Shown piece after piece: positions 1,445 through 55,839 of a stretch of 64,000 bases of DNA (position 1 is its first letter; each line of letters starts with the position of its first letter). A program made the translations under genes and the position numbers. The notes below the pieces were generated by a model, which worked only from the letters and a program-made list of their open reading frames with translations, was not told the DNA's origin and did no database searches. The stretch is from Haplodiscus bocki (lineage: Eukaryota): the NCBI GenBank assembly GCA_965655095.1, contig OZ296654.1, positions 70,122,001 through 70,186,000 on the forward strand. Direction: 5' to 3'.

Positions 1445-1500
1445 TCGTAATCGTCGTTACCGTAGCAACAGTGGCGCAACGGTATGCGTCCGGGACTCGT

Positions 1501-2599: not shown

Positions 2600-2602
2600 T
2601 TT

Positions 2603-10400: not shown

Positions 10401-10893
10401 TTGTTTGGTTGAGCAGTTTCTGAATTCAAGGCCCCTAACGGCGGCTAGCTCCGATCCAAAGGATCTCGATGCGCTTACCCCAAATCACTTTTTCTTTGGT
10501 GGTCCGAACGCTGCATCAATGTTTCATGTGCCAGAAAAAACTCAACCTGACAATCACCGGCAACGGTATCGAAAGTCAATCGCATACGCCAATGCAATTT
10601 GGCATCGGTGGTTGACAGAGTATGCCCCAACCCTTAATGTTCGATCGAAGTGGAACCGGCAAGACCCTACCACATTGAAGACTGGAGACTTAGTTTGCAT
10701 CGTTTAACCAACGAGTCCCCGCGGGTTCTACCCGCTCGCTCGAGTTAAAGAACTCCATTACGGATGCGACGGCATTGCTCGTTCAGCTGTCATCCGATCT
10801 TCGGCCGGCGTATTCACTCGACCGACCACAAAACTTGTTTCTGTTTTCGACTCGTCTTCGCCCAGGCGGGAGGATGTCGCTTACGCGAATTAA
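4453..10893 (+). pseudogene. gag-pol: BEL/Pao gag-pol polyprotein with several nonsense and frameshift lesions
   Basis: Coiled-coil N-terminus; Pao gag motif FDGNPLQWHEW; three Cys/His knuckles (CPVC..H..C, CFSC..H..C, C..C..H..H); protease ALCDSGCS; RT WYLPHHPV and FYMDD; RNase H VFGDSS, KLELQAA, WSDS, NPAD; integrase SDNGTNF. Stops at 6469, 7222, 7702, 9479, 10705; frameshifts near 8135, 8290 and 9860. Confidence 0.95.
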
Positions 10894-11362
10894 ATCAAGT
10901 AAACGGTCACGCACGCGGATTAAACCGTCGCGTGTGTCTATTTAGCGAACCTGTAACCGACCTTGTAAGCGAAAGGTCCGGCGATCGATTCCCGACCGGA
11001 CCGAACCTTTTTCACTCCAGTTTTTTTGAACTTCGAAGTTGTTAATTGGCTGAAATTTGCATATGAAAGTTTGTTTGGCCAATCAGAGCCGATTATGCAA
11101 ATTTCTTCCGAAAGCATGAAAAGACGCCCTCTAGGGGATGAAATTGAAATCGGCTAAACTAAGAAAAACTGAACATTGGGGCTTGTTTCATCGACACCGA
11201 ACAGACGGTTCAAAGAAATACGTTCGGACAAAGTGTTAATTTGTTAATAATTCTGCTCAATTCAAGCCATTTCTGTTAGAATAAACTCTCTGTTGGTGAT
11301 TCAAACTTGGAAATAACAGCTTTATTTCCACGGATTTAACCGGTTTATCGGGCCACGTCACA
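10875..11362 (+). repeat. 3' LTR (488 bp)
   Basis: Direct repeat of 2112-2599, preceded by PPT AGGCGGGAGGA (10864-10874). Confidence 0.95.
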
Positions 11363-16129: not shown

Positions 16130-16785
16130 CCTCAAATAGTGATAAGTGTCTTGATCCAGAGATGAGTCGAATGTCCGAAGCACTTTGATGACCCCAGCAT
16201 GGTTTCCAGTCAGCAGAAGATATCTGGGACTCTCTGGCACCAAAGCAGCTACGAAGAAGCAAGAAACGAGGACAATTATTGAAGTTATAATCACATACCA
16301 CTTCCAGCCATCTGGACTGGGAAGGGTAAACATTGCAATAGTAGACGCTAAAATAGTTCCCAGAAAAGCTGCAAAAAATATAATCAGTGTGGCAAACGAT
16401 CTACTTTTTGCATTGACCATTTCAGTTGCATACGTCACGGGAAGATACGCACCTCCTATTCCTACACCTGTGACGAGTCGTAGGATAGCATATGGAGTCA
16501 AGGCGTTGGCAAAACTTGTGGAAAACCCAAAGACTCCAATCCATAATAAAACTATAATCAAGGTAACTTTGCGTCCATATTTATCGGCGATAGTGCCCCA
16601 AATAAGAGAACCGGCCAGTGCGCCAACGTAGAGGGATGATGTGCTCATCGCTTCCTGGAGACCTGAAAGTTTCCACTCGCATAAAAGGACAGGGCCCAGA
16701 AGGATTCCTACTTCGGTTTCCATGACGTCACCGACAGTTACTATTGACAGGACCAGAATGACGACATAGTGGTAACAGGTGAATC
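16130..16785 (-). CDS. Exon of an SVOP/SV2-related MFS transporter (N-terminal half, TM1-6)
   Basis: GFTCYHYVVILVLSIVTVGDVMETEVGILLGPVLLCEW; motif A GTIADKYGRK; LRLVTGVGIGG; TYATEM; GWKW; PESPRYLL. Putative acceptor TTAAG| at 16786 and donor GTTAGA at 16129. Confidence 0.85.
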
Positions 16786-17080
16786 CTTAAACTTTCCAAG
16801 TCTATCTTGCATCTTGCAAAAATTTCTGATTAGTTTCTTTAATGTGTGAACAAAAAAAGTAAACGTCCGTTGAAGGAATCGATTTAAAAATTGTTTCCTT
16901 AAACATTTCTTCCGTTGAAAAATATATCTTTTTCTCGCTTTTTTATCAAAAGTGAAATTGCACACACTCATCAAATGTATGTTTGCGAGGATCATAGGAG
17001 CAAAAAATTGCTTTTCAAAACAATTATGAAGATCCCGGTTTGAATTTAAAATAAATTCAACAATGAACAGCTCTGAATCA

Positions 17081-18669: not shown

Positions 18670-20739
18670 ATCACAAAACGTCAACACTGATAGTCTCTGT
18701 TACATTTGTTCTCTGAAAGATCGAAAAACTCTGGATCAGCGCTGTTTAGCCCAGTAGTCTCTGACAACTCAATCGGAGATGCTATCTAACTAATCTGGTA
18801 GTCCTAATTTCTTGATATCCTCATCTATTATTTTTGAAAAATTCCCTGAAAATAATTTAATTCTCATACAATCAAAGTGAAAAAAAGTTAAGATTTGCTG
18901 CAGTCAGTTCCATTCACAAACCCGACTCCCCAGGTTCTACGTCCTAAAAGTGGGATTCGCGGTCAGGTCAGTAGACTTGGAAGTTTCCTTTACCAGTGGA
19001 ATCTAACAACTCATCCAGCGTTATCTCTTTCAAGGGTGGGCTGCAAAGATGAAAGGAACAAGTCAAAGATTTTTATAGACAGCTAATTGAGTCAAAAATA
19101 TTGTATACCGATCAACGTGCCGTAAAATATTTTATTACTAAAGTGATAAAAATTCCAAGCAATGTCAAAATACAAATGCAAAATTCGGCTCAGTGAAATT
19201 GGGGTGTAAATTGACGATAAGGTCTTTTGAGAAAAACGTCATCAAAGTTAACAGCAATGATATCGATCAAATGTTTGCGAGAGAAATCGTCATTCATGAA
19301 ACAAGAACTTTTCTTTCTTTATGAAAAAGAAAAGAAACAGAAACATCAATTCGACTTTCAGATGGCTTAAAAAAGGTACTAACATTTCTGATGGGTTGAT
19401 AGCACCGTACCCATCAGGGGGTAATTCTTCTCCGCCTGTTGTGCTTCCTATCACCTCCTCCAGTCCTGGGCGAGCTGTCGCTTTCTTCCTGCAAACAAAA
19501 AGAGGGTACTTACGAGAGTTCTATCTCTGTAAGTTAGCAATGGGTGTTTTATTTTCCGCCCCTATTAAAATATGGAAGGAAAGTCATCCAATCAAAGCGT
19601 TTTTTTTCAACGTTTACTTGCCAAGTGAATGAGTGAGATTTTGAGGGCATGAGTTTGAAAAGTTTGAATGCGAATGAAACTGTAGGACTTCTTCAATACG
19701 TACAAAAATAGGATTTTTTAGTCAAAAAAATTGGATTTGGAATTTTTTGTTAAATTAGTGAAAAGCAAGAAATTTGATGCAGAATGCCGTTTAAATGGTA
19801 GTATTTACTGGAAAGGCCTTTTTGCTACCAAAATATAGGATTTTTTTCAAAAAATTTTAAAAAAAACTCCAAAGTTTTTCAAACTCGTGAAAAAATAGCA
19901 AAACTGAAATAGAACGCAAACAGAAGGGTATTCTCCTCAAAGTGCATTTTCAACAAAGTTGCCGAGAAGAAAATATCCCTGTGCTAGCCAGGGTGTCATT
20001 TTTTGCATGTGTTTCTTGACGTTTTGTAGCTGCCGGTGTTCCACTGTGTATATGTTGCTGATACATTCTATGTCACTCAGAGTCGGATTAGAATGCTTTG
20101 TTGAAACTTCGCTCCGAAAAGTCAAATCTTTCGAAGTGTTGTCGCTCACAGTAAAATCAAAATGCTTTGCTGAAAATTGTTTCTGAAAAATTACCTCATT
20201 TTGATTCAACAACTGTTCATTTTGCAAAAAACCAGCTTTGTCTCCAAAACTAGAAAGTTGTCAATCTTGGTCCAATATTGCACAATCCATCTGTCCGAGA
20301 AAATCGGAAACCAAAACTTTATACCCATGCTACCACCCAAAGTCTTGACTGTTCTCAGAAAACAACAACTTCAAAGCCTGCTCAATGGAAACCATACTGC
20401 CAAAAGGAGCAAAAATTACACAATGTTGTTGTTAATACAATTGAAGAAAACAATGAAGAACTTTCTTGCTTAATCACAGAATTATGCCATGACGTCCAAC
20501 TTGAAATGAAAGTTGTAGCCTATTGGTCTCAAATTTTCACTTAACTTGATGGTATCTGCTGCCATGCGAGCTAAAAAAAAGCTCTGACTTCTGTTGACGA
20601 TCAAAAGTACAATACTAGTATTCCTATGATCAACACTGGTAAACAATTCACCTAATCAGGGGTATATTTGTAATACAAATTTGAGCAATCAGATAGCCGT
20701 GGATGCATATGACAATTCCATTTTGGCTGAATAGTTTTC

Positions 20740-23700
20740 CGTTGATGATCGATGAGATCAAGAATTTTGCCGGTGAATATGTTTGCAAGCATCCATGGAA
20801 GCGAATTTTCGAAGGACTTTTTCTACTCTTCTAGAGAAACGTTCTCCGAACATTATATCCCAGCAATTTGTTGAGAACTAAAGTGGTGCTCAATTGAAAT
20901 TCATTTTTTTCAGCAGTTCCAGCAAACAAACTGTCAATGTGTTCATCGTCCCAGGGGCAAACCTCTAAAAATAGCTCGAAAGAAACAGAAAAGTAATCAT
21001 TATCTTATTCATGAGCAATGATTGGCATTTTGATGAAATTGTCATCCAGATGGAGAAAATCTTCAAAAGGCTTTGTTTGGGAGCTTTTTTGCGCAAGAAA
21101 GAACAATCGGACATGTTCCAACAGTTGAAAAGAGCGCAAGTTCAATGGCTAGAAAAATAGAATACCACAGAATATGCGACCAAACACTTTTACCCAATAT
21201 TGTTTTGATTAGATTTTGTTTTTAACTTACGTTCCATTCTAAACTTTTTTGCCCGCAGTGAGCTTACAGCAGCTCCACAGAATGGGAAAACTCTAAAAAA
21301 ATGGTCCCAAGAAACAGATTGTTAAAATTCAGATTCAAAGCTGAGAAATTAATTGGCCTCCACAAAGTTCTGAGGAGATGTTAATTCAAAATTCAAAATT
21401 TTGGACTCCATCTTTTTTTCTTGCAATAAAAACATCAACAAAATACAGGCCAGTTGATGTGTAAACTAGGGCAGAAAGAATGAAATTCCTGCATAGGGAA
21501 TTTTGGAAGAAAAAATGATAAACGGCTCATTCTACAACTTTCTGTCAGTTTCATGGTGCAATTTTGAATAAAACGGAAGTTTGGGGAGAAGAAACGTAGA
21601 ATAGGAAGTCAATCAAAGCATCCACGGAAGAATATTCCGGTTTTAGGATTCTTGAAGTTTTCAATCGGAAGCTCAATATTCCAAACCCACATAACCCGTT
21701 GTGATCTGGGTTCAAAATTTCTGCGAATTTGTTCAGTCTCCTTACAAAACTCTGCGATCATTTCTCACATGTTTTGACAGTTTTTTTGGGTGTGAAGCGG
21801 TACGTCGAATCGCCTAAAAGTTTCTGGAAAGCTTGGAATTGCCAGCATTACCAAATATATGGTTCGTGAAATGAATGGAGTTTCAGAAGAAGGTTAAAAA
21901 TCCCTTTACAGTTGTCTATTCCGGACGAAATTGAATATACTCATATTACAATTGGAAGAAATATGAGTTTCATTGGTTTCAATTGTAATTTAGACTATCA
22001 ACTTATCGCCGGCTCAAGCAGAAATTACAATGTCAGGCGACAGCCATGTTGTGAAATTGAAAAACTTTGAAGATTTTTAACCTCTCAAAAAGCTCGGAGT
22101 TCCAGGCGTACGTGCAATGGCACTGCACCGCAACATTATACAGTTCAAGACATTCACTGCGTCAACTGTGTTTGCTATCTTTGTAGACGGAAATTCTACA
22201 GTCACCGTCACCCTTTTAAGTTCAGAGTTTTCTTCAGAGCTCGATAGGAGATTAATTTTGAAAACACGAAAAAAAGTAGAAACTGTTCAGTCCTTTCAAA
22301 AAGTGCGTTTACTTTTGAAAAGTCTTCTGCTCTCTGAATGCCTAAAACTGGATGAAAGCGTTCTTATATTACGCTACATTTTTTACTTCTCAACATTCTT
22401 ACAGTTCTTTGATGTTCGAATACATCAGTCAACTGGCTGAGTGGATAACTAGAAGAAGGCAAGTAAAATGGCAAAAATTTCAATTACCAAACGAATTGTA
22501 CAAAAGATATTGTATATTTTATATCATATTCCGAAACTAGCTTGTGGTTTAAATTTTGATGTCGTGGATGAGCTCACTGGAGGTTGATAGAAAGGAGGAA
22601 AGGTAGCTGATTTGATTTTAAAAGGATCAATTTGTACAATATTTGCATTCGGGCTGGAAAATTTTCCGTTAGTGATCGACGAGATCAAGAACTTTTGCGG
22701 TGATAATGTTTGCAGGCATCCGTGGAAACGAACTTTTGAAGGGTTGTTTCCACTCTTCTAGAGAAACGTTGTGCGAACATTAGATTCCAGTCATTTCTTG
22801 AAAACTGAATTGTTGCTCAAAAACTTTCATTTTTTAAGCACTTCCAACAACTAAACTGTCAATGTACTCATCGTCCAAGGAGCAAACCTCTAAAAATAGC
22901 TCGAAAGAACAGAAAAGTAATCAATATCTGATTCATAGGCAATGATTGGCATTTTGATGAAAGTTTCGTCCAGATGGAAAAAAGTTTTGAAAGGCTTTGT
23001 TTGGGAGCTTTTTTTGCGCAAAAAAGAACAATCCGACATGTTCCAACAGTTGAAAAGAGCGCAAGTTCAATGGCTAGAAAAATAGAATACCACAGAATCT
23101 GCGACCAAACAATTTTACCCAATATTGTTTTGATTAGATTTTGTTTTCAACTTACGTTCCATTCAAGTTTTCTTGACCACCTCAAGCTTGTAGCAGCTCC
23201 ACAGAACGGGAAAACTCTAGTAAAGTGGTCCAAAAAAAAACAAAACATATTTTTAAAATTAATATTCAATATCTGAGAAATCAAACACCCTCAACAAAGT
23301 TTTACTGAGATGTTAATTCAAAATTCAAAAATTAGGACTCAATGTTTAACTCTTGCTTGGAGAACATAAGGAAACACAGGCCAGCTGATGTGTAAACACG
23401 GGCAGAATGAATGAAGTTCTGCCTAGGGAATTTTTTGTAGAATAAAATGGATTTCTCAGAGGCAACTTCCTACATATTACTCGAAAGGTATCGAAAACTA
23501 TAACATCTGACTCCTATGCAATGTTATGCAAATCGATGAAATTGTCGTCCAGATGGAAAAAGAATTCGAAAGAAAACAAACAAAAGGTTTTATTTGGGAG
23601 CGTGTTTTGCGCAGGGGAATACATTCCACCGTCTCCAATAGTTTAAAAAAGCAACAGGTCAATCGCTATTTATACAGGAAACCACTGAAACTGCGACCCA

Positions 23701-26700
23701 ATAATTTTAGCCTTTATAATTTTAAATAGTTTCTGTTTCTACTTTACCTTCCATTAAAGGTTCATGGACCACACTTAGCATAGAGCAGTTCCTCAGAGTG
23801 AGTGGGAGATTCTAATAAATTCGCTGAAAAAACATCGAATTTTTTAACGGAGCAAAGTTATGGCCTCCACAAGCTTTTACTGAGATGATAACTCAGACTC
23901 TTCAAAATAGGACTCCATGTTTAACTCTTGCAAAGAAAACGTAAGAAAAAGCACATGCCTATTGAACTGAAAACATGGACACAGTGAATGAAACTCCTGC
24001 CTAGGGAACTTTTTCGTAGGAAAAAAGTTGATGAGCGGCTCATTATATAATTTCTGACAGTTTCAATGGTGCTATTTTGACTAAAACGGAAATTTGTGGA
24101 GAAGAAACGTGGAATAGGAAGTCAATCAAAGCTTCTACAAAAGATTATTCCGGTTTTGCGTTTCTGAAAATTTTCTTTGTGAAGCTCAAATTTCCAAACC
24201 CATATAACTTGTTTTGATCTTGGTTCAAAATTTTCGCGACGTCATTCAGTCTCGTTACGAAACTCCGAGATCATATCACAAACGATTTAACAGTTTTTTT
24301 GGGTGTGAAGCGCTACGTAGGTTTGCTTAAACGTTTCTGTAAAGCTTGGAATTTCCAGCAAAACGAAAGTTTTGGTTCCTCAATTGCAATAATTATCAAA
24401 AGAAGGTTAAAAATTGACTTACAGTTGTCTATTCCGGACAAATTAGAATATACTCATATTACAATTGGAAGAAATATGAGTTTCATTGGTTTCAATTGTA
24501 ATTTAGACTATCAACTTATCGCCGGCTCAAGCAGAAATTACAATGTCAGGCGACAGCCATGTTGTGAAATTGAAAAACTTTGAAGATTTTTAACCTCTCA
24601 AAAAGCTCGGAGTTCCAGGCGTACGTGCAATGGCACTGCACCGCAACATTATACAGTTCAAGACATTCACTGCGTCAACTGTGTTTGCTATCTTTGTAGA
24701 CGGAAATTCTACAGTCACCGTCACCCTTTTAAGTTCAGAGTTTTCTTCAGAGCTCGATAGGAGATTAATTTTGAAAACACGAAAAAAAGTAGAAACTGTT
24801 CAGTCCTTTCAAAAAGTGCGTTTACTTTTGAAAAGTCTTCTGCTCTCTGAATGCCTAAAACTGGATGAAAGCGTTCTTATATTACGCTACATTTTTTACT
24901 TCTCAACATTCTTACAGTTCTTTGATGTTCGAATACATCAGTCAACTGGCTGAGTGGATAACTAGAAGAAGGCAAGTAAAATGGCAAAAATTTCAATTAC
25001 CAAACGAATTGTACAAAAGATATTGTATATTTTATATCATATTCCGAAACTAGCTTGTGGTTTAAATTTTGATGTCGTGGATGAGCTCACTGGAGGTTGA
25101 TAGAAAGGAGGAAAGGTAGCTGATTTGATTTTAAAAGGATCAATTTGTACAATATTTGCATTCGGGCTGGAAAATTTTCCGTTAGTGATCGACGAGATCA
25201 AGAACTTTTGCGGTGATAATGTTTGCAGGCATCCGTGGAAACGAACTTTTGAAGGGTTGTTTCCACTCTTCTAGAGAAACGTTGTGCGAACATTAGATTC
25301 CAGTCATTTCTTGAAAACTGAATTGTTGCTCAAAAACTTTCATTTTTTAAGCACTTCCAACAACTAAACTGTCAATGTACTCATCGTCCAAGGAGCAAAC
25401 CTCTAAAAATAGCTCGAAAGAACAGAAAAGTAATCAATATCTGATTCATAGGCAATGATTGGCATTTTGATGAAAGTTTCGTCCAGATGGAAAAAAGTTT
25501 TGAAAGGCTTTGTTTGGGAGCTTTTTTTGCGCAAAAAAGAACAATCCGACATGTTCCAACAGTTGAAAAGAGCGCAAGTTCAATGGCTAGAAAAATAGAA
25601 TACCACAGAATCTGCGACCAAACAATTTTACCCAATATTGTTTTGATTAGATTTTGTTTTCAACTTACGTTCCATTCAAGTTTTCTTGACCACCTCAAGC
25701 TTGTAGCAGCTCCACAGAACGGGAAAACTCTAGTAAAGTGGTCCAAAAAAAAACAAAACATATTTTTAAAATTAATATTCAATATCTGAGAAATCAAACA
25801 CCCTCAACAAAGTTTTACTGAGATGTTAATTCAAAATTCAAAAATTAGGACTCAATGTTTAACTCTTGCTTGGAGAACATAAGGAAACACAGGCCAGCTG
25901 ATGTGTAAACACGGGCAGAATGAATGAAGTTCTGCCTAGGGAATTTTTTGTAGAATAAAATGGATTTCTCAGAGGCAACTTCCTACATATTACTCGAAAG
26001 GTATCGAAAACTATAACATCTGACTCCTATGCAATGTTATGCAAATCGATGAAATTGTCGTCCAGATGGAAAAAGAATTCGAAAGAAAACAAACAAAAGG
26101 TTTTATTTGGGAGCGTGTTTTGCGCAGGGGAATACATTCCACCGTCTCCAATAGTTTAAAAAAGCAACAGGTCAATCGCTATTTATACAGGAAACCACTG
26201 AAACTGCGACCCAATAATTTTAGCCTTTATAATTTTAAATAGTTTCTGTTTCTACTTTACCTTCCATTAAAGGTTCATGGACCACACTTAGCATAGAGCA
26301 GTTCCTCAGAGTGAGTGGGAGATTCTAATAAATTCGCTGAAAAAACATCGAATTTTTTAACGGAGCAAAGTTATGGCCTCCACAAGCTTTTACTGAGATG
26401 ATAACTCAGACTCTTCAAAATAGGACTCCATGTTTAACTCTTGCAAAGAAAACGTAAGAAAAAGCACATGCCTATTGAACTGAAAACATGGACACAGTGA
26501 ATGAAACTCCTGCCTAGGGAACTTTTTCGTAGGAAAAAAGTTGATGAGCGGCTCATTATATAATTTCTGACAGTTTCAATGGTGCTATTTTGACTAAAAC
26601 GGAAATTTGTGGAGAAGAAACGTGGAATAGGAAGTCAATCAAAGCTTCTACAAAAGATTATTCCGGTTTTGCGTTTCTGAAAATTTTCTTTGTGAAGCTC

Positions 26701-28150
26701 AAATTTCCAAACCCATATAACTTGTTTTGATCTTGGTTCAAAATTTTCGCGACGTCATTCAGTCTCGTTACGAAACTCCGAGATCATATCACAAACGATT
26801 TAACAGTTTTTTTGGGTGTGAAGCGCTACGTAGGTTTGCTTAAACGTTTCTGTAAAGCTTGGAATTTCCAGCAAAACGAAAGTTTTGGTTCCTCAATTGC
26901 AATAATTATCAAAAGAAGGTTAAAAATTGACTTACAGTTGTCTATTCCGGACAAATTAGAATATACTCATATTACAATTGGAAGAAATATGAGTTTCATT
27001 GGTTTCAATTGTAATTTAGACTATCAACTTATCGCCGGCTCAAGCAGAAATTACAATGTCAGGCGACAGCCATGTTGTGAAATTGAAAAACTTTGAAGAT
27101 TTTTAACCTCTCAAAAAGCTCGGAGTTCCAGGCGTACGTGCAATGGCACTGCACCGCAACATTATACAGTTCAAGACATTCACTGCGTCAACTGTGTTTG
27201 CTATCTTTGTAGACGGAAATTCTACAGTCACCGTCACCCTTTTAAGTTCAGAGTTTTCTTCAGAGCTCGATAGGAGATTAATTTTGAAAACACGAAAAAA
27301 AGTAGAAACTGTTCAGTCCTTTCAAAAAGTGCGTTTACTTTTGAAAAGTCTTCTGCTCTCTGAATGCCTAAAACTGGATGAAAGCGTTCTTATATTACGC
27401 TACATTTTTTACTTCTCAACATTCTTACAGTTCTTTGATGTTCGAATACATCAGTCAACTGGCTGAGTGGATAACTAGAAGAAGGCAAGTAAAATGGCAA
27501 AAATTTCAATTACCAAACGAATTGTACAAAAGATATTGTATATTTTATATCATATTCCGAAACTAGCTTGTGGTTTAAATTTTGATGTCGTGGATGAGCT
27601 CACTGGAGGTTGATAGAAAGGAGGAAAGGTAGCTGATTTGATTTTAAAAGGATCAATTTGTACAATATTTGCATTCGGGCTGGAAAATTTTCCGTTAGTG
27701 ATCGACGAGATCAAGAACTTTTGCGGTGATAATGTTTGCAGGCATCCGTGGAAACGAACTTTTGAAGGGTTGTTTCCACTCTTCTAGAGAAACGTTGTGC
27801 GAACATTAGATTCCAGTCATTTCTTGAAAACTGAATTGTTGCTCAAAAACTTTCATTTTTTCAGCAGTTCCAGCAACTGAACTGTCAATGTCTTCATCGT
27901 CTCATGGGCAATTTCCTACAAATTACTCGCAAGATACAGAAGGCTACAATAATCTGACTCATATGCAATGATATCCAATTCGATGAAATTGTCGTCCAAA
28001 TGGAAAAAGAATTCGAAAGAAAACAAACAAAATGTTTTGTTTGGGAGCGTGTTTTGCGCAGGAAAAATCAATCAACCATTGCCAATAGTTTAAAAAAGCA
28101 AACGTTTAATCGCAGAAATACAGAAAACTACCGAGCTAGCGATCAATTAA
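20740..28150. repeat. Wider higher-order array built on an approximately 0.6-kb diverged monomer
   Basis: GATGAAA..GTCCAGATGGA.AAA motif recurs at about 21030, 22955, 23535, 25470, 26050 and 27980; diverged flanking copies at 20740-21930 and 27860-28150. Confidence 0.8.
21933..27861. repeat. Tandem duplication of a 2513-bp unit, about 2.36 apparently identical copies
   Basis: Identical ORFs at 22117, 24630 and 27143, and at 22974 and 25487; offset 2513 throughout. Confidence 0.95.
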
Positions 28151-43507: not shown

Positions 43508-44079
43508 TATTATAGCGACCAGCCTTGGGAGCTATGATTATTTCATAAGTTTTTTTCAGACGTAAAATTTTTTTTTAATTTGCAACAAATAAACTAATTT
43601 ATTAGGTTAGTTATTACAGGTTCTAAACGCTTATGAAAAGGTTTACAAAAATTAAATTACAAGTAAAAAAAAATAGAACACCAACATTTGTCTTGTCTTC
43701 GTGATGTAGGGAGGTAGAGAGAGAAGAATAGAAGAAATTCCGGATTATTTTTTATTACGATGAGAAAAGTTTATACAAAAAGATTGTTCAGATTGTTAAT
43801 AGAGCCAAGGGAGAAATGCATGATGGTAAAACAAATCGCTAGATGACGGCTGTTACGAAAATGTGTACTGATATACTTCATCACTCGTATTCTACAACGA
43901 ACAGACACCAAGAAAGAATTATTTACGAATTACTTTTACTACGATAACGAGAGGTTGAGTAATAACGAACTAGAGAGCCTGGAGAAAATGAAGTAAAAAT
44001 TGAGTACACTTTTCAACAACGTCACGTAGTAAAATAAAAATTATCTAGATCACTTATAGTTTTGTGGGTTTTTTTAACG
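43508..44079 (-). repeat. 3' LTR of the Gypsy element
   Basis: Collinear with 55197-55839 (TCTTCGTGATGTAG, TTGTTAATAGAGCC.AGGGAGAAATGC, TATAGTTTTGTGGG); purine tract AAAAAGAAGAAC on the minus strand just inside. Confidence 0.85.
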
Positions 44080-44132
44080 GTTCTTCTTTTTAAAAAATAT
44101 TCGTCCCGCATTTCTATTTATCTTAGATTTTT

Positions 44133-45031
44133 TTAATTCCAGCATGTGGAAGTGTCAACATCGCTAAAAGGGCAGCAGAAACTACACAGGTGAGAATTCT
44201 AATTTCGGACTCCACGAAGGCCACAACAGTCCAAAATTCTTCTGTTTTTCAATGTGGACAAAATGTCACAGATATCCGTTAACGCTTCCGATATATTCAT
44301 GGGGCAAGTTGGGTTCTGATCTGGGTGAGTGAGGGGTCGGAGTCGTAATTATAGTTTACCAATTTCCTTCGGGGTAGCAGTTTCCGGAACCCCAAGAAAC
44401 GTGTAGCAGTCAGCAGCGGCGAGGCGTTCAAAGTTTGTTTCAGCAAAAGATTGAAGTATTGCATAGAAACACTGAATGGCTCGTTCATTTGCTCTGGTCA
44501 CTTGCTTGACTTCTTGTAGTTCTTTTGAGCCAGTTGTGTTTTGGCGGATGTCGCGAGTCAAGACTTCATTATCCTTTAACAGTTGCTCATAATTATTTCA
44601 AAACAAGTTTACAGACTTTCCAAAGCGGGAGAGTTCAACTTCTTTCTCTTTGACTTGTGCTTCTAATTTTTCAATTACATCTGCTTCACAAAGTAGAACA
44701 GCGAGTTCTTTCAATTCATCAGGATCTATATTGCAGACAAAGTGTGAATAATTGGAGGCGAAAATGAAGTTTAAATGTCCATGGTGTCCGGGAGGACAAG
44801 AGGAGCAATAGGTGAGCAAAGGTTACATTCTACGATGGAGTTTCTGTTGACAGCAAGGGTGGTAATTGGTTTCGGAGGAGCCCAAAGCGCCGAAAAACCA
44901 ACAAAAAAAGACCGCCGGCGGCTGTCGAAAGCGGGGTGAACCATGACGCATTTTGTTGAAAGTATGACGTGAGTCAAATGATATGGAGTTGGGTCCAAAT
45001 TTTACACGGTGTCACCACAAGCTACATCCAT
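44133..45031 (-). pseudogene. Accessory ORF after env: coiled coil plus C-terminal DnaJ (J) domain
   Basis: ORFs 44598-44819 and 44349-44561 share a frame. Reading through the TAA at 44349 gives DCYTFLGVPETATPKEIGKL*LRLRPLTHPDQNPTCPMNISEALTDICDILSTLKNRRILDCCG. Confidence 0.8.
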
Positions 45032-45279
45032 AATCTGACCACTGGCGGTGAGAGCTAAGGATCGGGACTGAGACCTGATATAAAAAAAGGTTGAAAAGTT
45101 TCAATAAAATGCACAGAAAGGAAAACAAAGGCTATAAGTTTCTTACGCATAGGCGTAGGCAAAAGCCTCTTGAGTTATCTCAAGGACACGGTGAGAACGT
45201 TTTGCCCTAGAGCCAGGACCTTCGACTAAGCGTTGAGAAAAAAAAATCAGTGTCAAACACTGGTCAGTGAAAAGCCTTC

Positions 45280-47950
45280 ACAAGGTGGAAGTTAGATACG
45301 ACATAAGGAGGGGTATGAAATAGTGATCCTCACGGTACATACTCGTAGAAGAAAGAGCTCTCGGTGAAAACCTGAGGAAAGTAGCATGATTCAACATTAG
45401 TGAATTAACACTGGACGGGAGTAGATCGGAATACATAAAATATTTTTTAAGTAAGACGTAACATTGGACGGGAATAGGTTTACTGTGGTCAAGCATGAGG
45501 TGTTGAGTACGTGTGAGCAACATCGGGGTAGAGGAGGGGTTGTTTTGAGGATGTGTTGCTAGTGGGACAAGTGTCAACTTTGCGGCGTGCGAGTGATTCT
45601 GTGGCAAATTCGGATAACGCTGAAAGTTCGTCTTCGGTTCAATAAAAAAAACGCAGTTGTCGCTTGCGTGTCATCTGCAGCAAGCTCGTTAACGATGTGT
45701 ATAAATTGCGAAAGAGGCGTTGCAGATGAGTGATGAACTACTTCCATTGACGTTTGAACAATATGAAAGTGAAGCTGAAAGAAATCAAAGAAATGGTCAT
45801 GGACAAGAGAGCTAAACACAAAGCGCCCTCAGTCTGCATATATCCTTCGAGTGTTTTCCTCGTGGCAAGCTGAATGGAGGCCTAGTAGTGAGAGATGGGC
45901 TCAGCCACCGCTTTGAGTTTATCAAAATCCTTTGTGTGCACGTCGGGTACCTCCGCTAGTTCCATGCGGACACTGGTCAAGATACAGACTTGCGTATATC
46001 GCTGTGAGAACACATATTGAACTCGGCACTAGGCGGTGGTAGGGACTCAAAGACTTTTTGCAACGATGGAATTAGTTAAACTCTGGCGACAAACGGCTCC
46101 GGACGAGTTTCACAGTAACTCATGTCCGGGTTCAAAACAAGACCTCCATGGTTAAGCGTTATTTTAAATGAGCAACCTGGGCGAATGACACTTGCATGAC
46201 AGTCAATAGAGGATATTCTAGTGCCATGAGAATCGGTATCGTTCATCATTGGAACGTGGCAATTTCGTGGGATGACTTGATAAAGGCCATCTGCAAGGTA
46301 TGAAGCTTGCGGGGCATTAGGTAACAGAACTTATTCAAACGTGATAATTTTGGAAAGCGGGAACATTAAAGTTTTAAAACAGAGACGTTAAACACAACAA
46401 ACTCATATCTGTGGTAGTGCAAAATCCTTTACGGCAAGATTGATTCTGTTGGAGCCAAAACACTGTTGCAACGTGGCAACACCAAAGTCGGCGTGCTGGG
46501 ATTTGTCAGTCGCAGTTGATAAACAGTCATGACGGAACTGATACAAAGAAACAATAAAACCATCCTTATTGGGCTGATAAATTGGAATTGCACGGTTAAT
46601 ATTGACAGTAACAGATTATGAACTCATAGGTTTCCCAAGTACAACAGAGATATCAGAAGCTAGGATGGGAACTTCTAAGACAGTTTGAACTGCGTAGTAC
46701 GTTGTTTCGTAACCAACTTGCATGACTGGTGATAGCTTAGTATCGCGCTGAAAATATTCTTTTGAGAGTTCAGGAACAATCTCGGCTAAACAATTGGGTG
46801 TTGACAAAACAAAAGCAACATAGCTGGACGATATTGAAAATACTGCTGAATAAAGGTTACTTCTGCAAAAAACAAAAGCTGATTGGTAAAATCTAAGATG
46901 AGTGTACACAACATCCAAATACAAAGTTCGATTTTCCACTTTGAAGACGAGATTGCTAAAGTGTTTGGTATGGACTGCACAATGAGCAAAATAGTTCAAA
47001 GAATGAAAAAGTTGATCTATAACTTCGGACGTGGCGGTCAAATGGTTTTTGACTACATCCCCAAATGCGTTGACATTTTTCTGCGTCATTGATGTCTCTG
47101 AACCAAGGAGAACAAATTTTCTGTCGTTGACGGTTTGAACCATTTTCATTGATTCAGCAAAACGTTCTGTTGGGCCATAGGGTTGAAATGTCGTTCTTCA
47201 AATCTGTTCTATCGCTGCACAGTTTGAAGATAGGGAAAGCACTGCATGCTGCGTCCTTTATTGAGTTACCATGAACTAAGATAGCTGCTGCAGATACGGC
47301 CATCAATGCAGGAATAAAGCAACGTTGCCAAGAACGTCCCGTCTGTCTTTTGTCTCCGTTCGGTTTCGTGGACGGCGGTGCGAAAGACTCGGTAACTCGA
47401 AGGAGTTGAAGGTGTTCGTCTGCAATGGCATTTTTTCTTTCAGGAGAAGATTCACGCGATTTTCGACTAACTCAGCTAAACCTGCCAACTTTGCTAACAT
47501 AATATTGGTGTTGACGACGCAATACATGTGTGTAGATTAGAATTGGCCTCTAGTCAGATCCATATTATCTTGGTATCTGTGACCGGTATTGGAAAGTTTT
47601 TGACGCGCCTCTAAGACAATCTGGCGCAACTGGAATGCTCCAGCTGGGTCAAATGCTGGTGGCTGTGGAAATGGTGAAAAGAGTCTAACGTTACTCACAT
47701 TTTGAGATGTGACGGCTTGATAAGCTTAGGTAAATACTGCGCCTCGTTGTATATCCTGGTCTTCTTTCTTGGAGTCCACACTTGTTTGGAAAGAAACCTC
47801 GTAGCTGATCATAGGAAACCAAGAGTTCAGGAAGATATGGGAAGTTAGCCAAGGACACGTTCCGGAGCGTTGGTACTAAACAAAAAGAGGAAAACTAGGA
47901 AACGACAAAGAAGAGTAAGAAACTGGAGAGAAGTTAGACAGGTGAAAATA
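45280..47950 (-). pseudogene. env: Envelope/fusion glycoprotein (class I, errantivirus/baculovirus-F-like), disrupted
   Basis: Hydrophobic N-terminus at about 47900; basic site RRPRNRTETKDRR followed by hydrophobic DVLGNVALF; long helical region 47149-46616; Cys-rich 46600-46000; TM ALCLALLSMTISLISFSFTFILF at about 45755-45825. Confidence 0.75.
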
Positions 47951-48649
47951 GTAGCAAAAAATGCAAACTACTTTTTCTCATCATGATTCGATTTATGGGA
48001 ACTATGTTCCTATTTACTTCTTTTTAGATTTTCTAATTTCGAGTTGCTACGTTAATGCTTTTCTAATTGATGATGCGGTTGTGCATGCGCCAACGGTGTA
48101 GAACGTAACTGACGTTGACACGTGGGCAAGCTACCAAGTTTGGCAGACGTTTGCGAGGTAGTTGAGTGGTCTAACTTTTCTGCGGCCTCAGAAATGAGAC
48201 TCTCAATGGAAAAAGATGAAGATGAGTCTCGTGGTACAATGCTAATCCTTGGGAAACTTGAAATATCAAAAACGTCTTTAATTACTGTTGGAGAAAGTTC
48301 CTACGGTGAAATCTCAAAAAAATCTCGAGGTGGATTAAAAAGGGTGGTTTTACTGGGGACAGAAGAAGCTCGTTTCAGATATGCAGCAGCAGAAGATCCT
48401 TGGCCGGGGCTTCATGGACAAAGACTGCAGGAAATGGGTTTGTAGAAGCAGTTCGAGACCGGGGGTCTACTGGAATGTTTTCAACCAAAATTTGGGAACA
48501 GTTACAATGTTGGTGAGTAGCGGAGTGCGGTTTTTGAAACTATTTACTTGTCGGTTCCTTAGAGATATTTGATGCAGGCCGCGCGAGCTGTGGTCTTTTT
48601 GTGCGTTGAATGAAGGGTTTTAAAGGGTCATAATAGACGATGGACTCCT

Positions 48650-51600
48650 TTTGGATCGCTGTGTTTTTGATTTTTTATATAAAGTCGCTAAGACATTCTA
48701 CAATTGTGTATGGACCTTTACAAGGGGATGAGAGTTTGGGACTCAGTTCTTTGGGGGTGACAGAGTTATGTAACCAAACTTTGTCACCTGGTTTGTATCG
48801 GGGGCCGTGCGTTTTAGAATTATACACAGCACTGCGTCGCATTTGAGAAACTTGAAGATGAAGGTGTGCTGTATCGCGGGCTCTTTGCATGTTGGCACTT
48901 TTTTGCTGAATAAACTGATGCACGTCGGTTTTGTTCCTTTGTTCTTCCGAAGGATACTGGATATCCCCTGGGAGGTTAATTTCTTCGCCCGAAACAAGAA
49001 ACTGAGGTGTGTAACCTGTTGACTCATGGACTGAAGTTCGGAATGCCACCATTACATACGGAAAATGCTGGGCCCAGTTGCTTTGGAAGTCATCGACAGT
49101 TTTGGCCAACATGTTCAGTAAAGTTTTGTTCATTTGTTCGATTACGGCATTTGATTATAGATGGAATGTTGTAGTCCGCGTTTTATCAATCTTAACCGAC
49201 TATATGAGACTTTGGAAGAGTTCAGACACAAAGTTTCGACCTTGTTTGTATGAATGCTCATGGGAACGCCAAAACGACTACTCCAGTGTTGAAGTAGTGC
49301 GGTAGCAGTCAATTCAGCTGTCTGATCTGACAATGGGACTGCTTCATACCGCTTTGTGAAGTGATCACCAAATATTGCTTTGTATGAGTTACCATTTGAA
49401 ACCGGGAGTGGTACAAGGAAATCAATACCAATGTCAGCAAAAAACACCGGGAAACCAACTGACAAGGCTGTGTCTATGTTTCTGCTTGGAGCTGTTACGT
49501 TGTTGACAAACAAGACAACTTGAGACAAACACACTTGAATCTTTCTTGTGTCCTGGCCAATAGAATCTAGTTCGAAGCTTTTCTAAAGCTTTTTTAACTA
49601 CTAGGTGGGCAGCTGGTTCTCAACTGGGAATTGATTCTAAAATATTGGGTCACAATGTTGTTGGAACGACTTGTTGTAAAAGACTTTGGCTTGTGCTGGA
49701 ATCCTCAAAACTTCGCAAAAGTTATCATTTACAACATTGAGGGAGGTAAAGTTGTTCCAGAGAACCGAAATGTCTCTGGACTGGCCTTGTATGACTCAGC
49801 GATGGGGTTGTTTCCCGTTTTTAACCCAAGAAAGAACGGTTGCAATACTCTGATCGTCTTCTTGTGCTTGTTGCATGTAATTCTCTGTTCCTTATTCTTT
49901 TCGAGTCCCGCTATGACTAAAATTCTGCTGTTGCGGCCGTCTATAAACCGTGACTTTCAAGGAAGAGTTGTGGAAAACATCCGTGGTGGTTTTTTTCACT
50001 TTCAATCAATCTAGCTTATCTAGTCCGGTCGACAGTTGTGGTATGCTTATCTTTTTATTTTTGTGTTTCTGCACGGATTGCAAAATGGCTTCCAATGCTA
50101 CACGTAGGGAAAAATACGTTGGTTGGCTACAAAATCTGGACTCCACTATCAAGTCACAAAGGAATCTATTCGGAGAAATTTGTTGTGGGTAAACTTTTCC
50201 TTTCGACGCTTTCGACACAAACTCGGGGTATCCGGTTGGGAAATCTTTACTAACCTGCTTAGCAAAACCTGCTGCTAGCTTAAAAAAAGCTGAAATGCTA
50301 TGCGCTATTGAATCTGTCGAATCAAATAGATTTCCACTCAGTTCTAATACTTCAAATTTCTCAGAAGTTTTTGTTTGGCAGACTGTGTGCACGAGGTTAA
50401 AACTTTGTTGACTTCTCTCATCTTCAACATTTTAGGTATAAGATGCTATTGTTGCTCTTTTGACACCGTGTGCCCTTTTTGCCGAGTGACTGGTGCTTTT
50501 CCTTTGTCCGTGCGGGGACGATAACGCCATTCTGTGTCACTTGTTTCATCGTTGAATTGCGTTGGATGCTTTGCTTCAGCACTACTCGTAGATGCATGAG
50601 CCTGATCCACGGTGCCGTCTTGACTAGGAATCATGGACGTAGAGTCCGCGTGCCCGATACTTTTTGTACTGCGATGGATATTTTCATATTCAAAAGACCC
50701 TATTATTTGTAGCCAACGTGCCGTTAGACCATAGGGTCTTTGAAACTTTGAAGCCACTGCAAAGCTCTGTGATCAGTGACAATTTGGAACGTTCTTCCTA
50801 ACAAGTAATGCTTGAAATGTCTAGCGAATTTCACAATAGCCAAAAAGCTACGTTTCGTGGTGAAATGTCGGCTCTGAGTTTTGCTAAAGGATTTGGATGC
50901 TTAACAAATGACGCGTTCCGAACGATTTTGAAATTGAGTGAGAAGTGCGCCCATTGCATGCTGGCTAGCATCAGTATACAATATGAAAGTTTCGTTCTTG
51001 CTCGGGAAAACCAAAGTTTGGGCGAAGGTGAGCCTCAACGTCAGAACATCAAATGCTTTCTGGGCTTCAGAATTCTAGAGGAAATCTTTTAATTTCTCAG
51101 TCAGTTGATTCAAAGGACGGGCTGGTTTTGAAAAGTCTTGCACACCTCTTCTAAAGTATGAACAGAGACCTAAAAAAAATTTTAATTTCGGTACCCTTCT
51201 TTTGTACCGTGTATTTTTTAACAGCGGAAGTTTTCTCAGGATCGGCTTGGATGCCTACAGGGCCTTGATTTTGAGATTGGCCATTTTGAACCTTTGAAAA
51301 ATTTCACGAAGGTGGTCAAGGTGTTCTTCGATTGTGCGGGAAAGAATGATGCAATCATCAGAATAAAGAACTGTCAATTTCCAAGTTATGCTTACGAGTA
51401 CCTTTCTCATGAGACTTTGAAAGTGTTTGGACTGCCGGTGAGTCCCATTGGCATTCGCAGTTATATAAAAGATTCAAATGGTGTACTGAACGCTGTATAG
51501 TCCTCAGTGGCTTCTTCCATCCAGATTTGATAAACTTTCCAAGACCTGTCAATGATAGAGAAGTAACAACTACCTTCCAAAGTGTCAAAGGTTTCCCCGA

Positions 51601-52730
51601 TGGATCGTATTGGCCAACAGGACATAGTGGTATGCTTGTTAAACTGCTGATAGTCAATGACAAGTCTCAGTTTACCATTTTTTTGGAACTAACATAACAG
51701 GTGCACAGTATTGGCTATGGCACAGCTCAATGAGTTCATGCTCAAGGAATTGGTCCATTTTTTTCCCGAAGGTCTGATTTGAAATGCATTAGTATCAGTC
51801 AGTTCGGAAAATTGATCGGAGTACAACCTGGGTAAACTTGAATTTTATCTTTCACGAGATCGCATTTTCCGATGTCTTTTTCATCTTTAGAGAAAACAAC
51901 CGAAAAATCACGGAACAACTGCGCAAATTTCGCATGGGAACTTCCCATCAGAAGTAGTTTTGCCTGGTTGGAGGTCAGACTTGTTGATTGCGGTGTGTTT
52001 CTGTTTTGGTAGAAAAGTTACACTGTTCTGGGAGAACGTTTCGTCTTGCAGCATAGTGATTGTTCTTCGCGTTAAACCTTTGTAGATCATTCGATCTGCT
52101 CCGGGATTAATGATACGTGCCGGGATAGCATCCTCTTGAAATTTGGAAAACTTTCTGAAAGCTGAGACATTCTGCTTCTCACAGAAAGATTGTGAAGGTT
52201 CGAAAATTCATTGATTTGTCAGTAAGGTATGATCATCATGGCCAATTTTACCTAGAATATTCGCTTCATGACCGGACGTTTTGAGGGATGTTTCTCTGGC
52301 AACAACTCTCATGACTGGGCAGTGTCAGGATTGAAACGGTACTGTTCGATGGAAAAGGTTTGCGGAGGTACCACGGTTCAAACGTAACTTCGTTTCAAAA
52401 AACATGAGATCACACTTGTGTGTCTCACGAATATCGAGACCTAACAAACACTCATCTTCAGAAGCTTCAAGGACAAAAAAATGTGTCGAAAAGTCATTGA
52501 TTCTCTTTTAATTTCAACTGCATGTTCACCTTTTACTTTAATCTCGCTTGGATTGGCGGCTAGGAGTCGTTTAAAACATGGTTCCAGAGATGACTGCACC
52601 TTTGGAGGAAGACGAACGAACACTTTTGGGCTCAGACAAAAAACACTTGCGCCTGTGTCCCAAACGGCGTCTGACGGAATTTTAAAGACCGTAACTCGTA
52701 CAAAAACACTTCTGTCATCCACCACTGAAT
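48650..52730 (-). pseudogene. pol: Gypsy pol (protease, RT, RNase H, macrodomain, integrase with GPY/F module), disrupted
   Basis: Protease AVWDTGAS; RT remnants 52000-51150; RNase H ending TARWLQII...SIGHAD; integrase RFYWPG, IGIDF, IEQMNKTLLNML, HESTGYTP, KGPY. Confidence 0.9.
49940..50350 (-). other. TARG1/OARD1 (Poa1p-like) macrodomain embedded in pol
   Basis: GNLFDSTDSIAHSISA..LAAGFAKQV...QPTYFSLRVALEAI...ISIPQLSTGLDKLD*(W)..DVFHNSSLKVTVY. Confidence 0.85.
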
Positions 52731-52779
52731 TTACGCATTCCGTCTACTGAAGGCTTTTTGATTTGGCTGCGCAGTTGCC

Positions 52780-53720
52780 TCGTTGATAAGCAGGTGCTTT
52801 AAGTTTAACTTCTGGCGTCGGGTGCGGCATTTTTGCTTGAAGATGCCAATTTTGCCACAATTAAAACATGTTTTGCGGTCACGGCTGGGATCCTTGGTTC
52901 GGCCACATTGTTTGCATTTTTCTTCATCGCTACGGTGCGGACTCGAACTTCGGTCTCATTTGTTGTTTTTGGAGGTATCTGAGAAGCTAATTTTAGATTA
53001 AATCTGCTGATTGTTGCTGTTTAGGGCGGTTTTTTGCTCGTTGGGCTGGTTAGGTTCTTCAGAGATAGAAACGTTGTTATTGCGTCTCGATCCTGTTAAG
53101 GGAGACCGATATTGGTTACTATCTCGACTATCCGAGCGATTTTTTTGTTCTACGAGGCACTTCTGTTGGTACATGGTGACCTAGCCAAAGTGTCTTAAAT
53201 TTCTGTGCGGAGACTACGAACTAACTCAGTAAAAGTTTCGAGAGGGGTCTCAGTGCTGATATCGTTAACACCAGAACTTTGCATTTTTAAATCGTCGAAT
53301 TCAAGAAAAGACTGGGTTTCCAATGCTGTTTGCAGTGCAGCGTCAGCATCTGCGGTTTTCGCTTTGCGAACCTCCCTGCGAACAGTGGGGTTCGACAAAC
53401 TGGCAATGAAACTGGTCAGCAGGATTTCATTGCGGACAGCCTCAACAGGATAGCCATTGCGGGATAAATCTCGCAACTACCAGAAAAAAAATGGGGATGG
53501 TTTGTCCTGATTGTTGATGGGTAGCTTTAACTTTAGCCTTATGCATATCTTGATTAGGAGTTTACTGAGTTCAAAAAGCGTCAAGAAATCGATTTATGTT
53601 AACTACAAGTGGGGTATATGGAAGCACAGAAATCAAATCAACGTTTAAATGCTTGTTTGAGGCCAACAAAAGTTGAAAATTGGAACCATCGGTACGACAG
53701 CGGGTTTCAGTAACACAAAC
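52780..53720 (-). pseudogene. gag: Gypsy gag, disrupted
   Basis: QQSGQTI...RDLSRNGYPVEAVRNEILLTSFIASL capsid motif; zinc-knuckle remnants CKQCGR and CFNCGKIG. Confidence 0.75.
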
Positions 53721-55180
53721 AGGGCATGGAGGACATAGATGAATCCACGGAAAAGAAAATGGAACAACATGAGTTCCAACCGTGAAGCAGATAGACTAAG
53801 AATCAAAAAACAAAACAAAATAGAGAACGAAAGCCGTTTAGAGACAACAAAAAAAGAATAAACAAACAAATGAGAAGAATCAGGAGCCGGTGGATGGATT
53901 TTAAGAGAGCCAAAGTAAGAGAAATAGTGTCAGGGGCAATTGCAAGGCGCTTTCGTAGCTCGGGTGAGAAGTGGCTTGAGCCTGTTTTGTTGGATTTTCA
54001 GGATCTTGATGCTTCTGAGACATTTGAGGTGCCAGAAGTAACTGTGGAAGAAGAAGACGTGACAACGGCGACGCTGGTCGAAAGCAATGCAGATAAGCGT
54101 GGGGTTGAGGCAACTGGTTGGCTGTTAGGTTGTCAGGGTTATTATGCGCGTACACTTCCAAGTAAAGGAGTCAAAGATTTCCGAGGAGGTAGAAAGTTAG
54201 AGCGTAGTGGAAAAAAGTGTTATTAGTGTCAGTCAAATAGGACCGAGTCGAAGTGCGCGAAATATATGAATGGTAGTGCTGATTTAAGAGGACACTGTGA
54301 AGAGGTTGGAGTCAAGGAGGGAACGGGCGACCGTAACCAAGAATACAAGGGTATGGAACTCTAGCGCATAGATATTGACAAAAATAACAAGGGAAAGCAA
54401 TGACAAAGGGGCCGGAGCTAATGTTAACAGTGTGGTAGACGGACATACAAACTAGTTAACAAGTTTATGTGTTTTTTTGCAGCGAGGCGAAGAGAAATGT
54501 TAAAGAACACGGCAGCACGCGACGTGACGAACGTACGGCAAGGAAAGAACGTAGCGGAAATGACGGCGACAAAAGAACGTTGCAGAACGACGAGGACAAA
54601 ATCGGGGCGTCGTGGAAAACTAAAATCTTAGAGGTGGGGGTAGAAGGTACTGCCGCTAATCCTACACCAATCAGTCTCAGTGTTCCACACTGGAGGGACA
54701 CCTAACTTAGTCTAGTTGGTCACATATGCGGAAGAAACCAACTGGATTGAAACTCTGGATCAATTAAAACTCATCAAACGTGTTGATGGACAAGCAATAG
54801 TATTCTCAGTGAAATTTCAAGCCATGACCAACTGATTGAATAAGTGCCTTGGCATGGGATTCGTACTCCAAGAAGAAAAAAATGAAAGAAACGAACGCAA
54901 GGATTGGCGCGGGTTAGCAAAAAACGGAAAACGGATGGAAGCGCTAAAAGAAAAGCAAAAGGTAGTTCGATAAGCGAACTGTTAAAATTAAGTCACTTCA
55001 AATGACAAACAACGGAAAAAAGGAACCAAAATGTGAAAATTGTAAAAATTGAAAAACGTCAGCGCTGATGCAGTTTAAGAAAAGAACGCAAAAACCAAAA
55101 CAAAGCAAGGGAGGAAAATGTGTTAGAGACCAAACGAAAAGTTTAGAGGATGCTTGTGGGTGACATTTAAAAGTCTAGAA

Positions 55181-55194
55181 AGTTCCTGTCACCA
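55181..55194 (-). promoter_or_regulatory. Primer-binding site of the Gypsy element
   Basis: TGGTGACAGGAACT immediately after the 5' LTR; tRNA not assigned. Confidence 0.6.
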
Positions 55195-55196
55195 TT

Positions 55197-55839
55197 TTAT
55201 ATAGCAATATTGCTTTGGGTGCTATAAGTTTTGTATGTTTTTCCTCAGAAACAAAAATCTTTTTGCACTTTGCAATAAATAAAAATAAAATATTAGGTTA
55301 GTTTTTTACAGGGTTAAAACGTTTACGAATAAATTGAAATAATTATAAACAAACAGTAAAACTTATAGAACACTAACATTTTTCTTTTCTTCGTGATGTA
55401 GAGAGATAGAAAGAGACGAAGAGAAGAATTTCCAGATTATTTTTCTTTACGATGAGAAAAGTTTACTTTTGCTATATAGATGAGCTGTTGTTTACTGCAC
55501 AAAAAGATTGTTGGGATTGTTAATAGAGCCGAGGGAGAAATGCGTGATGGGAAAACAAATCGCTAGTTGGCGGCTGTTACGAAAATGTCTACTTCACTAA
55601 TCGTAGCTGTTAACGAGTAATGACTGATGATATACTTCATGACTCGTATTCTACAACAAACAGATACGAAGAATGAATTACTTGCGAATTACTTTGACTT
55701 TAATAACGAGAGGTTGAGTAATAAGGGCCTAGAGATCCTGGAGAAATTGAAGTAAAAATTGAGAACAATTTTTACAAAGGTCACGTACTAAAAGCAAAAA
55801 ATATTTAAATCAGTTATAGTTTTGTGGGTCTTTATAATA
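55197..55839 (-). repeat. 5' LTR of the Gypsy element
   Basis: Diverged repeat of 43508-44079 with two extra insertions; termini decayed. Confidence 0.85.

Follow-up and report, generated by a model that had tools for sequence, protein, structure and literature searches.

A J-domain gene downstream of env in a clade of complex Gypsy elements of the Haplodiscus bocki genome

The window (the whole stretch of 64,000 nucleotides analysed here, positions 70,122,001 to 70,186,000 of Haplodiscus bocki contig OZ296654.1) contains a Gypsy element with an F-type env and, downstream of env and before the 3' LTR, a real fourth gene, ORF4, which encodes a J-domain and is present here as an old copy that is broken. 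Comparison with its relatives left practically no doubt on our side that ORF4 is a genuine accessory gene shared by a clade of complex Gypsy elements with env. A broader reading, to which we give even chances, is that these elements are complex Gypsy retroviruses with at least five accessory genes and form a clade that has not been described. In them, a single LTR donor would provide the start codon of a swappable 3' host-proteostasis cassette, consisting of an Hsp70-recruiting J protein in most lineages and of RING ubiquitin ligases in another, and a shared barrel and zinc-tail targeting module would act on element RNA or on host silencing factors. If so, a working Hsp70 co-chaperone would for the first time be known from a reverse-transcribing element. 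Complex retroviruses are marked by their accessory genes, which in Gypsy elements are rare and for the most part unassigned. ORF4 offers a biochemical handle in its HPD J-domain and dozens of natural open-frame variants at 19–65% identity, along with a lineage carrying a natural deletion and a splice junction that can be predicted. The use of Hsp70 by an LTR element thereby becomes directly testable, as does the possible evolution of Rev-like regulation or of counter-silencing among the env elements of invertebrates; module swaps and RING replacement show the turnover of such cassettes.

The element in the window and its ORF4 relic

The element spans 12.3 kb on the minus strand, has a Ty3/Gypsy organization (protease, RT, RNase H and integrase in that order, LTRs, a primer binding site, a polypurine tract and a 4 bp TSD, ATAT), and is broken in every gene. 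Its two LTRs share ∼84% ungapped identity (464 matches, 89 mismatches). Its parts, from the 5' end, are as follows.

55840-55837 (5' LTR side) and 43510-43507 (3' LTR side), TSD ATAT, read at both element ends
55200..55836, minus strand, 5' LTR with TATA...TATA ends (LTR comparison)
55371..55383, minus strand, predicted splice donor within the 5' LTR (exon end AT at 55379, intron start GTTAGT at 55378)
55177..55194, minus strand, primer binding site, TGGTGACAGG...
53610..54455, minus strand, three small upstream ORFs, broken (tblastn)
54455-54120, minus strand, upstream ORF with CxxC/His (tblastn)
54119-53881, minus strand, upstream ORF with PPxY plus transmembrane segment (tblastn)
53795-53610, minus strand, third upstream ORF (tblastn)
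52803..53603, minus strand, gag with CCHC knuckle, broken
47971..52800, minus strand, pol with protease, RT, RNase H, Macro domain and integrase with GPY/F, broken (Pfam on relatives L031/L037)
45492..47857, minus strand, F-type env, broken, 60–65% to homolog P0005
45140..45270, minus strand, four hairpins (short inverted repeats) between env and ORF4
45074..45090, minus strand, predicted splice acceptor (T-rich tract, CAG at 45077-45075, first exon base G at 45074)
44133..45074, minus strand, ORF4 relic with SH3-like barrel, Pro-rich linker, coiled coil, J-domain and Cys tail
44205..44415, minus strand, J-domain part and the subsequent YDxYG-like motif (HPD at 44327-44319)
44078..44110, minus strand, TGCG-N-GACGCA-type palindrome (44110-44100) and polypurine tract
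43511..44077, minus strand, 3' LTR (LTR comparison)

The initial annotation had proposed a hidden J-domain gene in this place, and the peptides that it quoted are present at 44133-45031 on the minus strand. A translation of 44136-44780 with X placed at the stops scored 29.9 bits against PF00226 (cut-off 27.8, E 6e-7), which bears out the J-domain identity. The best PDB relative of the relic was DNAJB6 (E 6e-5), and 32 of the 38 PDB matches listed at E ≤ 10 were J-domain proteins by name. Likewise, the location claimed for the gene held, with env (47857-45492) upstream and the polypurine tract and 3' LTR (44077-43511) downstream, and the stop said to replace the conserved Tyr is the one at 44351, in helix II. 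The single frameshift reported near 44790 exists, its exact point being bounded by the overlap of two tblastn frames to 44807-44729; besides the four stops counted before (45004, 44600, 44351 and 44201), a fifth at 44773 has to be added if the frameshift is downstream of 44773. The upstream limit of the gene needed revision, as 45031 corresponds to an internal Met and the exon probably starts at 45074, behind the predicted splice acceptor. The N-terminal SH3-like barrel and the C-terminal Cys motif had gone unnamed; the architecture given here for the relic was taken from open-frame relatives.

The palindrome just 5' of the polypurine tract is kept in 30 of 32 relatives. In the pol of L031 the Macro domain occupies residues 659-721, between RNase H and integrase (about 50400-50000 on the minus strand of the window); it scored 27 bits, above the Pfam cut-off, in one of the ORF4-bearing families, which are labelled A–G below (family A), and weakly in family B. 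Among relatives L083-L096 the first upstream ORF, PCYFCQ/His-rich, recurred in 11 of 14, the late-domain-like PPxY plus transmembrane ORF in 13 of 14 and the third, of 100–130 aa, in 8 of 14; their order in families A–C is unlike that in D–G, and a Pfam scan of the three gave no match.

ORF4 as a gene of the element lineage

Using the relic as query, at least 151 matches were found in the genome, and three more queries revealed further families, so that ORF4 is carried by at least seven families (A–G), many copies having open frames. Of 40 ten-kb loci picked by ORF4, 37 had env directly upstream on the same strand, and the other three comprised two internal deletions and one tandem array; starting from env in families A–C, a set overlapping the former, the J core was found downstream of env in 28 of 30 loci. 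LTR pairs were 98.6–100% identical over the aligned part in all 14 elements compared, three of which are clipped by the locus end, and 4 bp TSDs were read in eight of these 14. Trees of RT and ORF4 (20 loci) showed the same main groups, and the phylogeny of ORF4 also follows that of env, judged for the env set by a quick tree. The dN/dS ratio of ORF4 was 0.05–0.41 in the 11 unsaturated of 20 pairs (Nei-Gojobori; eight pairs were saturated in dS and one nearly so), which indicates that selection keeps ORF4. Thirty-two open frames were compared, and HPD was kept in 29 of them, as well as in the relic and in L101 (see below); the [C/H]CG..CxxC tail was likewise kept in 29 of the 32. Overall ORF4 identity between families across the deepest split is just 19–35%.

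These results agree with the initial annotation in taking ORF4 for a gene of the lineage. Nothing that it had named as speaking against this (lack of a DnaJ match, family copies devoid of the segment, a TSD or poly-A proper to it) was seen in families A–G. We give virtually no chance to a passively carried host retrocopy or chance frame: the window copy is itself broken, as such a sequence might be, but purifying selection, the fixed position after env, splice signals of its own and the congruence of the trees all stand against it, and the 4 bp TSD flanks the whole element, with none separate for ORF4. The env-ORF4-LTR order is, moreover, shared by L101, a public contig from outside this genome, on which env is followed by an ORF4 that has both HPD and Cys tail, and then by the start of an LTR. 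The representative of the L101 cluster had no match in this genome at 1e-12, and both its env and its ORF4 branch beside families A and B. A second public env cluster together with an ORF4 cluster hints at another source with the same pairing. A search of IMG/VR gave no env relative, and the best ESM Atlas values, 0.82 for whole ORF4 and 0.88 (DnaJ) for its C-terminal part, serve as leads only.

As to env, kinship with baculovirus F, a furin site and a membrane span were all found, in keeping with the F type. Family B env matched Baculo_F above the Pfam cut-off (E 1.8e-7); those of A, D, E and G gave no Baculo_F match, yet are homologs at 45–60% identity.

Several structural variants were also observed. 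A tandem array of ORF4 fragments with a period of about 2.7 kb occupies 69.55–69.59 Mb of contig C10 (L024, L029, L030 and L048); its frames, of 267 codons, are mostly open, and pol and env are absent from it. Four internally deleted copies (L035, L044, L045 and L080) have lost all or part of env and retained ORF4, L080 in part. In part of family G (L072-L076, oriented positions 8930-9600) a fifth ORF, ORF5, lies 3' of ORF4; it is about 205 aa long, has a basic C-terminus and, by eye, SGNH-like motifs, and gave no Pfam or PDB match.

The ORF4 protein and its predicted message

An AF2 model based on an alignment of 14 sequences (pLDDT 81, pTM 0.41) placed, in this order, a five-strand barrel (residues 1-55), a disordered Pro-rich linker, a 90-residue helix, the J-domain and a short tail. 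Pfam DnaJ scores were above the cut-off in families A (33.2 bits) and B (53.3 bits), and of nine frames from C–G four scored above it, three scored below and two gave no match. The top PDB rows obtained with Foldseek for the model were J-domains, the four-helix fold superposing at an rmsd of 1.3–2.6 Å over 60–75 columns (prob 1.0, E 2e-3 or weaker), and HPD lies between helices II and III. Helix II contains three to four K/R residues in A–C and L101, two to three in D and one to two in E–G, being degenerate in several families; the scarcity of basic residues in E–G, together with the five of nine C–G frames under the Pfam cut-off, disfavours a uniform co-chaperone role. The motif after helix IV aligns with YDxYG..G of DNAJB6 and reads IYDHCGYEG in L101, which suggests, from sequence comparison, that the J part was captured from a class A/B J gene whose YDxYG..G motif was then turned into a zinc site.

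Of all domains the barrel is kept best between swapped modules, and it superposes on Spt5/NusG KOW and Tudor folds (Z 7.5–8.4, rmsd about 2, 51–54 aligned). A model match at Z near 8 reflects a common fold, from which neither RNA binding nor any other function follows. Derivation from the GPY/F domain of the element's own integrase was not supported (hhalign probability 2.3%; the score was 15.0, and 30 shuffles reached 13.3 at most). No signal peptide or membrane span was found in the ORF4 protein. Taken together, the product is likely to be a soluble coiled-coil oligomer, in which a basic SH3/KOW-like barrel and a Cys/His zinc site would contact the target and the HPD J-domain would recruit host Hsc70.

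In 10 of 11 open frames of families C–F the first Met lies within or past the barrel. A T-rich acceptor was found 5' of the barrel in 31 of 32 copies, in phase and stop-free in 29 of the 31, and the base after it is G in 27 and A in the four family B copies, each of which has its own ATG right behind. The first 750 nt of the 5' LTR region contain exactly one AT|GTNAG in 14 of 14 elements, representing about seven independent families, and in the window as well (at 55378), the chance of a single occurrence in shuffled sequence being 0.04–0.17 per LTR region. As the LTR donor ends in AT and the acceptor exon starts with G, joining the two creates an ATG start codon. ORF4 is thus very probably made from a fully spliced subgenomic RNA, as predicted from these signals. 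The two sites also covary in family H, a sister family described below: its donor reads ATGTC|GTGAGT in four of four, and the acceptors of three ORF classes (48 of 48) share one phase and begin with C or T; in a fourth ORF class, 7 of 11 fit the acceptor pattern. L101 has a likely acceptor followed by TG at 2510-2519, where the start may arise as A|TG, its donor being outside the contig.

Four runs over L044, a copy that has no 5' LTR, gave DNA-like contigs, and none of the 15 joints listed, out of 57, was of the GT-AG type. A search for spliced retrocopies of family A found none, and four pattern matches taken as family E candidates turned out to be an unrelated repeat. Minimum free energy folding of the 105 nt 5' of the acceptor in 12 loci gave z values from −3.4 to +1.2, without a uniform signal.

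According to the available part of the text on Drosophila springer-subclade elements (PMC12992720), their main exon, that of env, is likewise spliced from an AU dinucleotide. The device is therefore already known, but for env, whereas here it is predicted to serve ORF4; and unlike in the springer subclade as described there, at least 11 of the 14 elements have their donor within the LTR.

Module exchange, candidate roles and known systems

In four families env is about 90–100% identical and identity then drops to 52–69% from the start of ORF4 through the LTR; L037 and L064, for example, are 99–100% identical in RT and env and only 56% in ORF4, where dS is saturated. These alignments show ORF4 plus LTR to be swapped between elements as one module, and ORF4 diverges far faster than RT.

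Family H, whose env has open frames and is 45% identical to that of A, lacks the J core in all 30 loci, of which 13 reach the LTR within the stretch read and four more were followed to it. Its post-env ORFs (L104-L133, L164-L167) comprise RING-like ORFs in an array of variable make-up (Pfam E 1e-4 to 4e-4, under the cut-off), a further ORF of 125–148 aa and, last, a J-less barrel-tail ORF, each behind a same-phase acceptor. The last ORF, of 122 residues, joins the barrel directly to helix IV and the Cys tail, and is under selection (pN 0.015–0.077 versus pS 0.20–0.34 in non-identical pairs). Since helix IV derives from the J-domain, this state represents J-domain loss; the barrel and tail, retained throughout, thus form the constant core, with the J-domain as an optional effector.

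As a tentative proposal, the one we favour although it is well short of probable, ORF4 might be a regulator of the element's own RNA, similar to HIV Rev or to CERV of the Caenorhabditis elegans element Cer1, that also recruits Hsp70 (Hsc70). Since the predicted donor sits in the LTR, all gag, pol and env RNAs would contain an intron, and as this donor is strong, unspliced and env RNAs would need help. The hairpin array in the intron just 5' of the ORF4 acceptor would be a candidate binding place, as the RRE is for Rev, and like the RRE it would be missing from the spliced message; ORF4 bound there might promote export or block splicing, and Hsc70 might remodel or recycle the complex. Hairpins with a TTTC-type loop occur two to four per spacer in 12 of 15 loci, with stems that differ in sequence while pairing is kept. 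The motif G[TTTC/TATC/TTCC]C, picked after inspection, was found 36 times in 8,010 nt of 15 spacers and 0 times in 99,000 nt of pol/env; spacers of A–C have different hairpins (0 of 3 match it), as does that of the window. Against the model counts that family H replicated without a J-domain and with a spacer devoid of TTTC hairpins. CERV, in the available part of its description (PMC10309623), exports gRNA and is made from a spliced mRNA, as Rev is and as predicted for ORF4; it shares with ORF4 a coiled coil, a Cys-rich putative zinc site and the logic of unspliced-RNA export, the likeness drawn here being one of features, and no J-domain is mentioned there.

Polyomavirus T antigen uses Hsc70 to take apart Rb-E2F. 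ORF4 could similarly be a counter-defence adaptor, its barrel and zinc tail binding a host silencing or restriction factor that Hsc70, brought by the J-domain, would dismantle, with the RING ligases of family H serving the same end. This we hold to be rather unlikely. The divergence of ORF4 and LTR beside near-identical env in four families, with saturated dS, the pace of ORF4 change relative to RT, the variable RING arrays in the same slot of family H and the Tudor/PWWP folds among the barrel matches would suit it; but dN/dS exceeded 1 in no pair, one 3' crossover would shift ORF4 and LTR jointly with no need for selection on ORF4, family H encodes its RING and its barrel as separate proteins, and, measured against the aromatic cage layout of Tudor methyl readers, the barrel shows no clear methyl-reading cage, only Y17 and F42 being invariant or nearly so. 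A role as particle chaperone, with ORF4 recruiting Hsc70 to Gag during assembly or uncoating of the capsid, seems unlikely. An intact HPD under selection, the existence of viral J proteins (PMC3486835) and the PPxY-membrane ORF, which points to a budding particle, are in its favour, but family H lacks the J-domain and ORF4 variants only 56–67% identical function on near-identical backbones. The initial annotation had thought of capsid functions and of Env folding. An essential capsid role is weakened by family H, which has an open env and no J-domain in any of its 30 loci while its barrel-plus-tail is still selected. Env folding in the ER lumen is a poor fit for a protein devoid of signal peptide and membrane span, which makes it unlikely, and the env-deleted L035, L044 and L045 keep an open ORF4.

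Distinctly unlikely, in our view, is a Tat/Tas-like transactivator of the element's own LTR whose KOW-like barrel would act in transcription elongation. ORF4 does travel with its own LTR, the best barrel matches are Spt5 and NusG KOW, and the product is predicted to be early and fully spliced; but the linkage of ORF4 to the LTR is expected from reverse transcription alone, and the barrel fold is generic. The least probable of the functional alternatives, which we would be surprised to see borne out, makes the J fold a structural scaffold for the zinc tail that no longer works with Hsp70, at least in E–G. That E–G have lost basic residues of helix II as well as Pfam score, and that helix IV and tail survive alone in family H, agrees with this, but all families and L101 retain HPD at 19–35% overall identity.

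J-domain proteins are also present among polyomavirus T antigens and as the baculovirus BJDP. Phage RB43 057w is a further virus-encoded example (PMC3486835). These proteins and the giant-virus DnaJs resemble ORF4 in placing an HPD J-domain in a mobile genome; they all come, however, from DNA viruses, whereas the J-domain of ORF4 resides in an LTR element and is C-terminal, behind barrel and coiled coil and with a Cys motif at its end. BFVD matches to ORF4, including BJDP and giant-virus DnaJs, all had E > 0.001 and covered the J part only. The cellular class A/B proteins (DNAJA/DNAJB), the likely origin, share the J-domain followed by a YDxYG..G-like motif; in contrast to them ORF4 has its J-domain at the C-terminus, no G/F region and no client-binding C-terminal domains (Pfam), being class C-like by architecture.

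Compared with the env-carrying, errantivirus-like Ty3/Gypsy elements of Chary and Hayashi (PMC13524379), as far as the available part of that survey describes them, the elements here have the same LTR-gag-pol-env order, F-type env, 4 bp TSD and many young copies, but add ORF4 after env, three ORFs before gag and a Macro domain in pol, and their env has its own ATG. The word 'dnaj' occurs 0 times in the main text and seven supplements of the survey, counted outside the figures and, for cells over 400 characters, in part of the cell. Rotifer LTR elements with captured ORFs (GDSL, DEDDy) likewise have family-wide extra ORFs near the 3' end, but there these replace env, whereas ORF4 accompanies it, and 'dnaj' occurs 0 times in the available text (PMC5408684). 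No LTR element with a J-domain gene was found in the portion of the full-text literature covered, subscription journals, Repbase, Dfam and GyDB being beyond this scope, and such a gene may have been annotated in one of these databases. Both J-domains encoded by DNA viruses and additional ORFs carried by LTR elements are known already, and a complex env-bearing Gypsy element with a J-domain gene is a new variant.

Elsewhere in the window, a BEL/Pao LTR element with DUF1759, Peptidase_A17 and DUF5641 was observed at about 1300-11000 on the plus strand (8,763 bp repeat spacing), a tandem repeat with a 2,513 bp period and internal sub-repeats at 20700-28100, and a host MFS/sugar-transporter-like exon at 16091-16786 on the minus strand.
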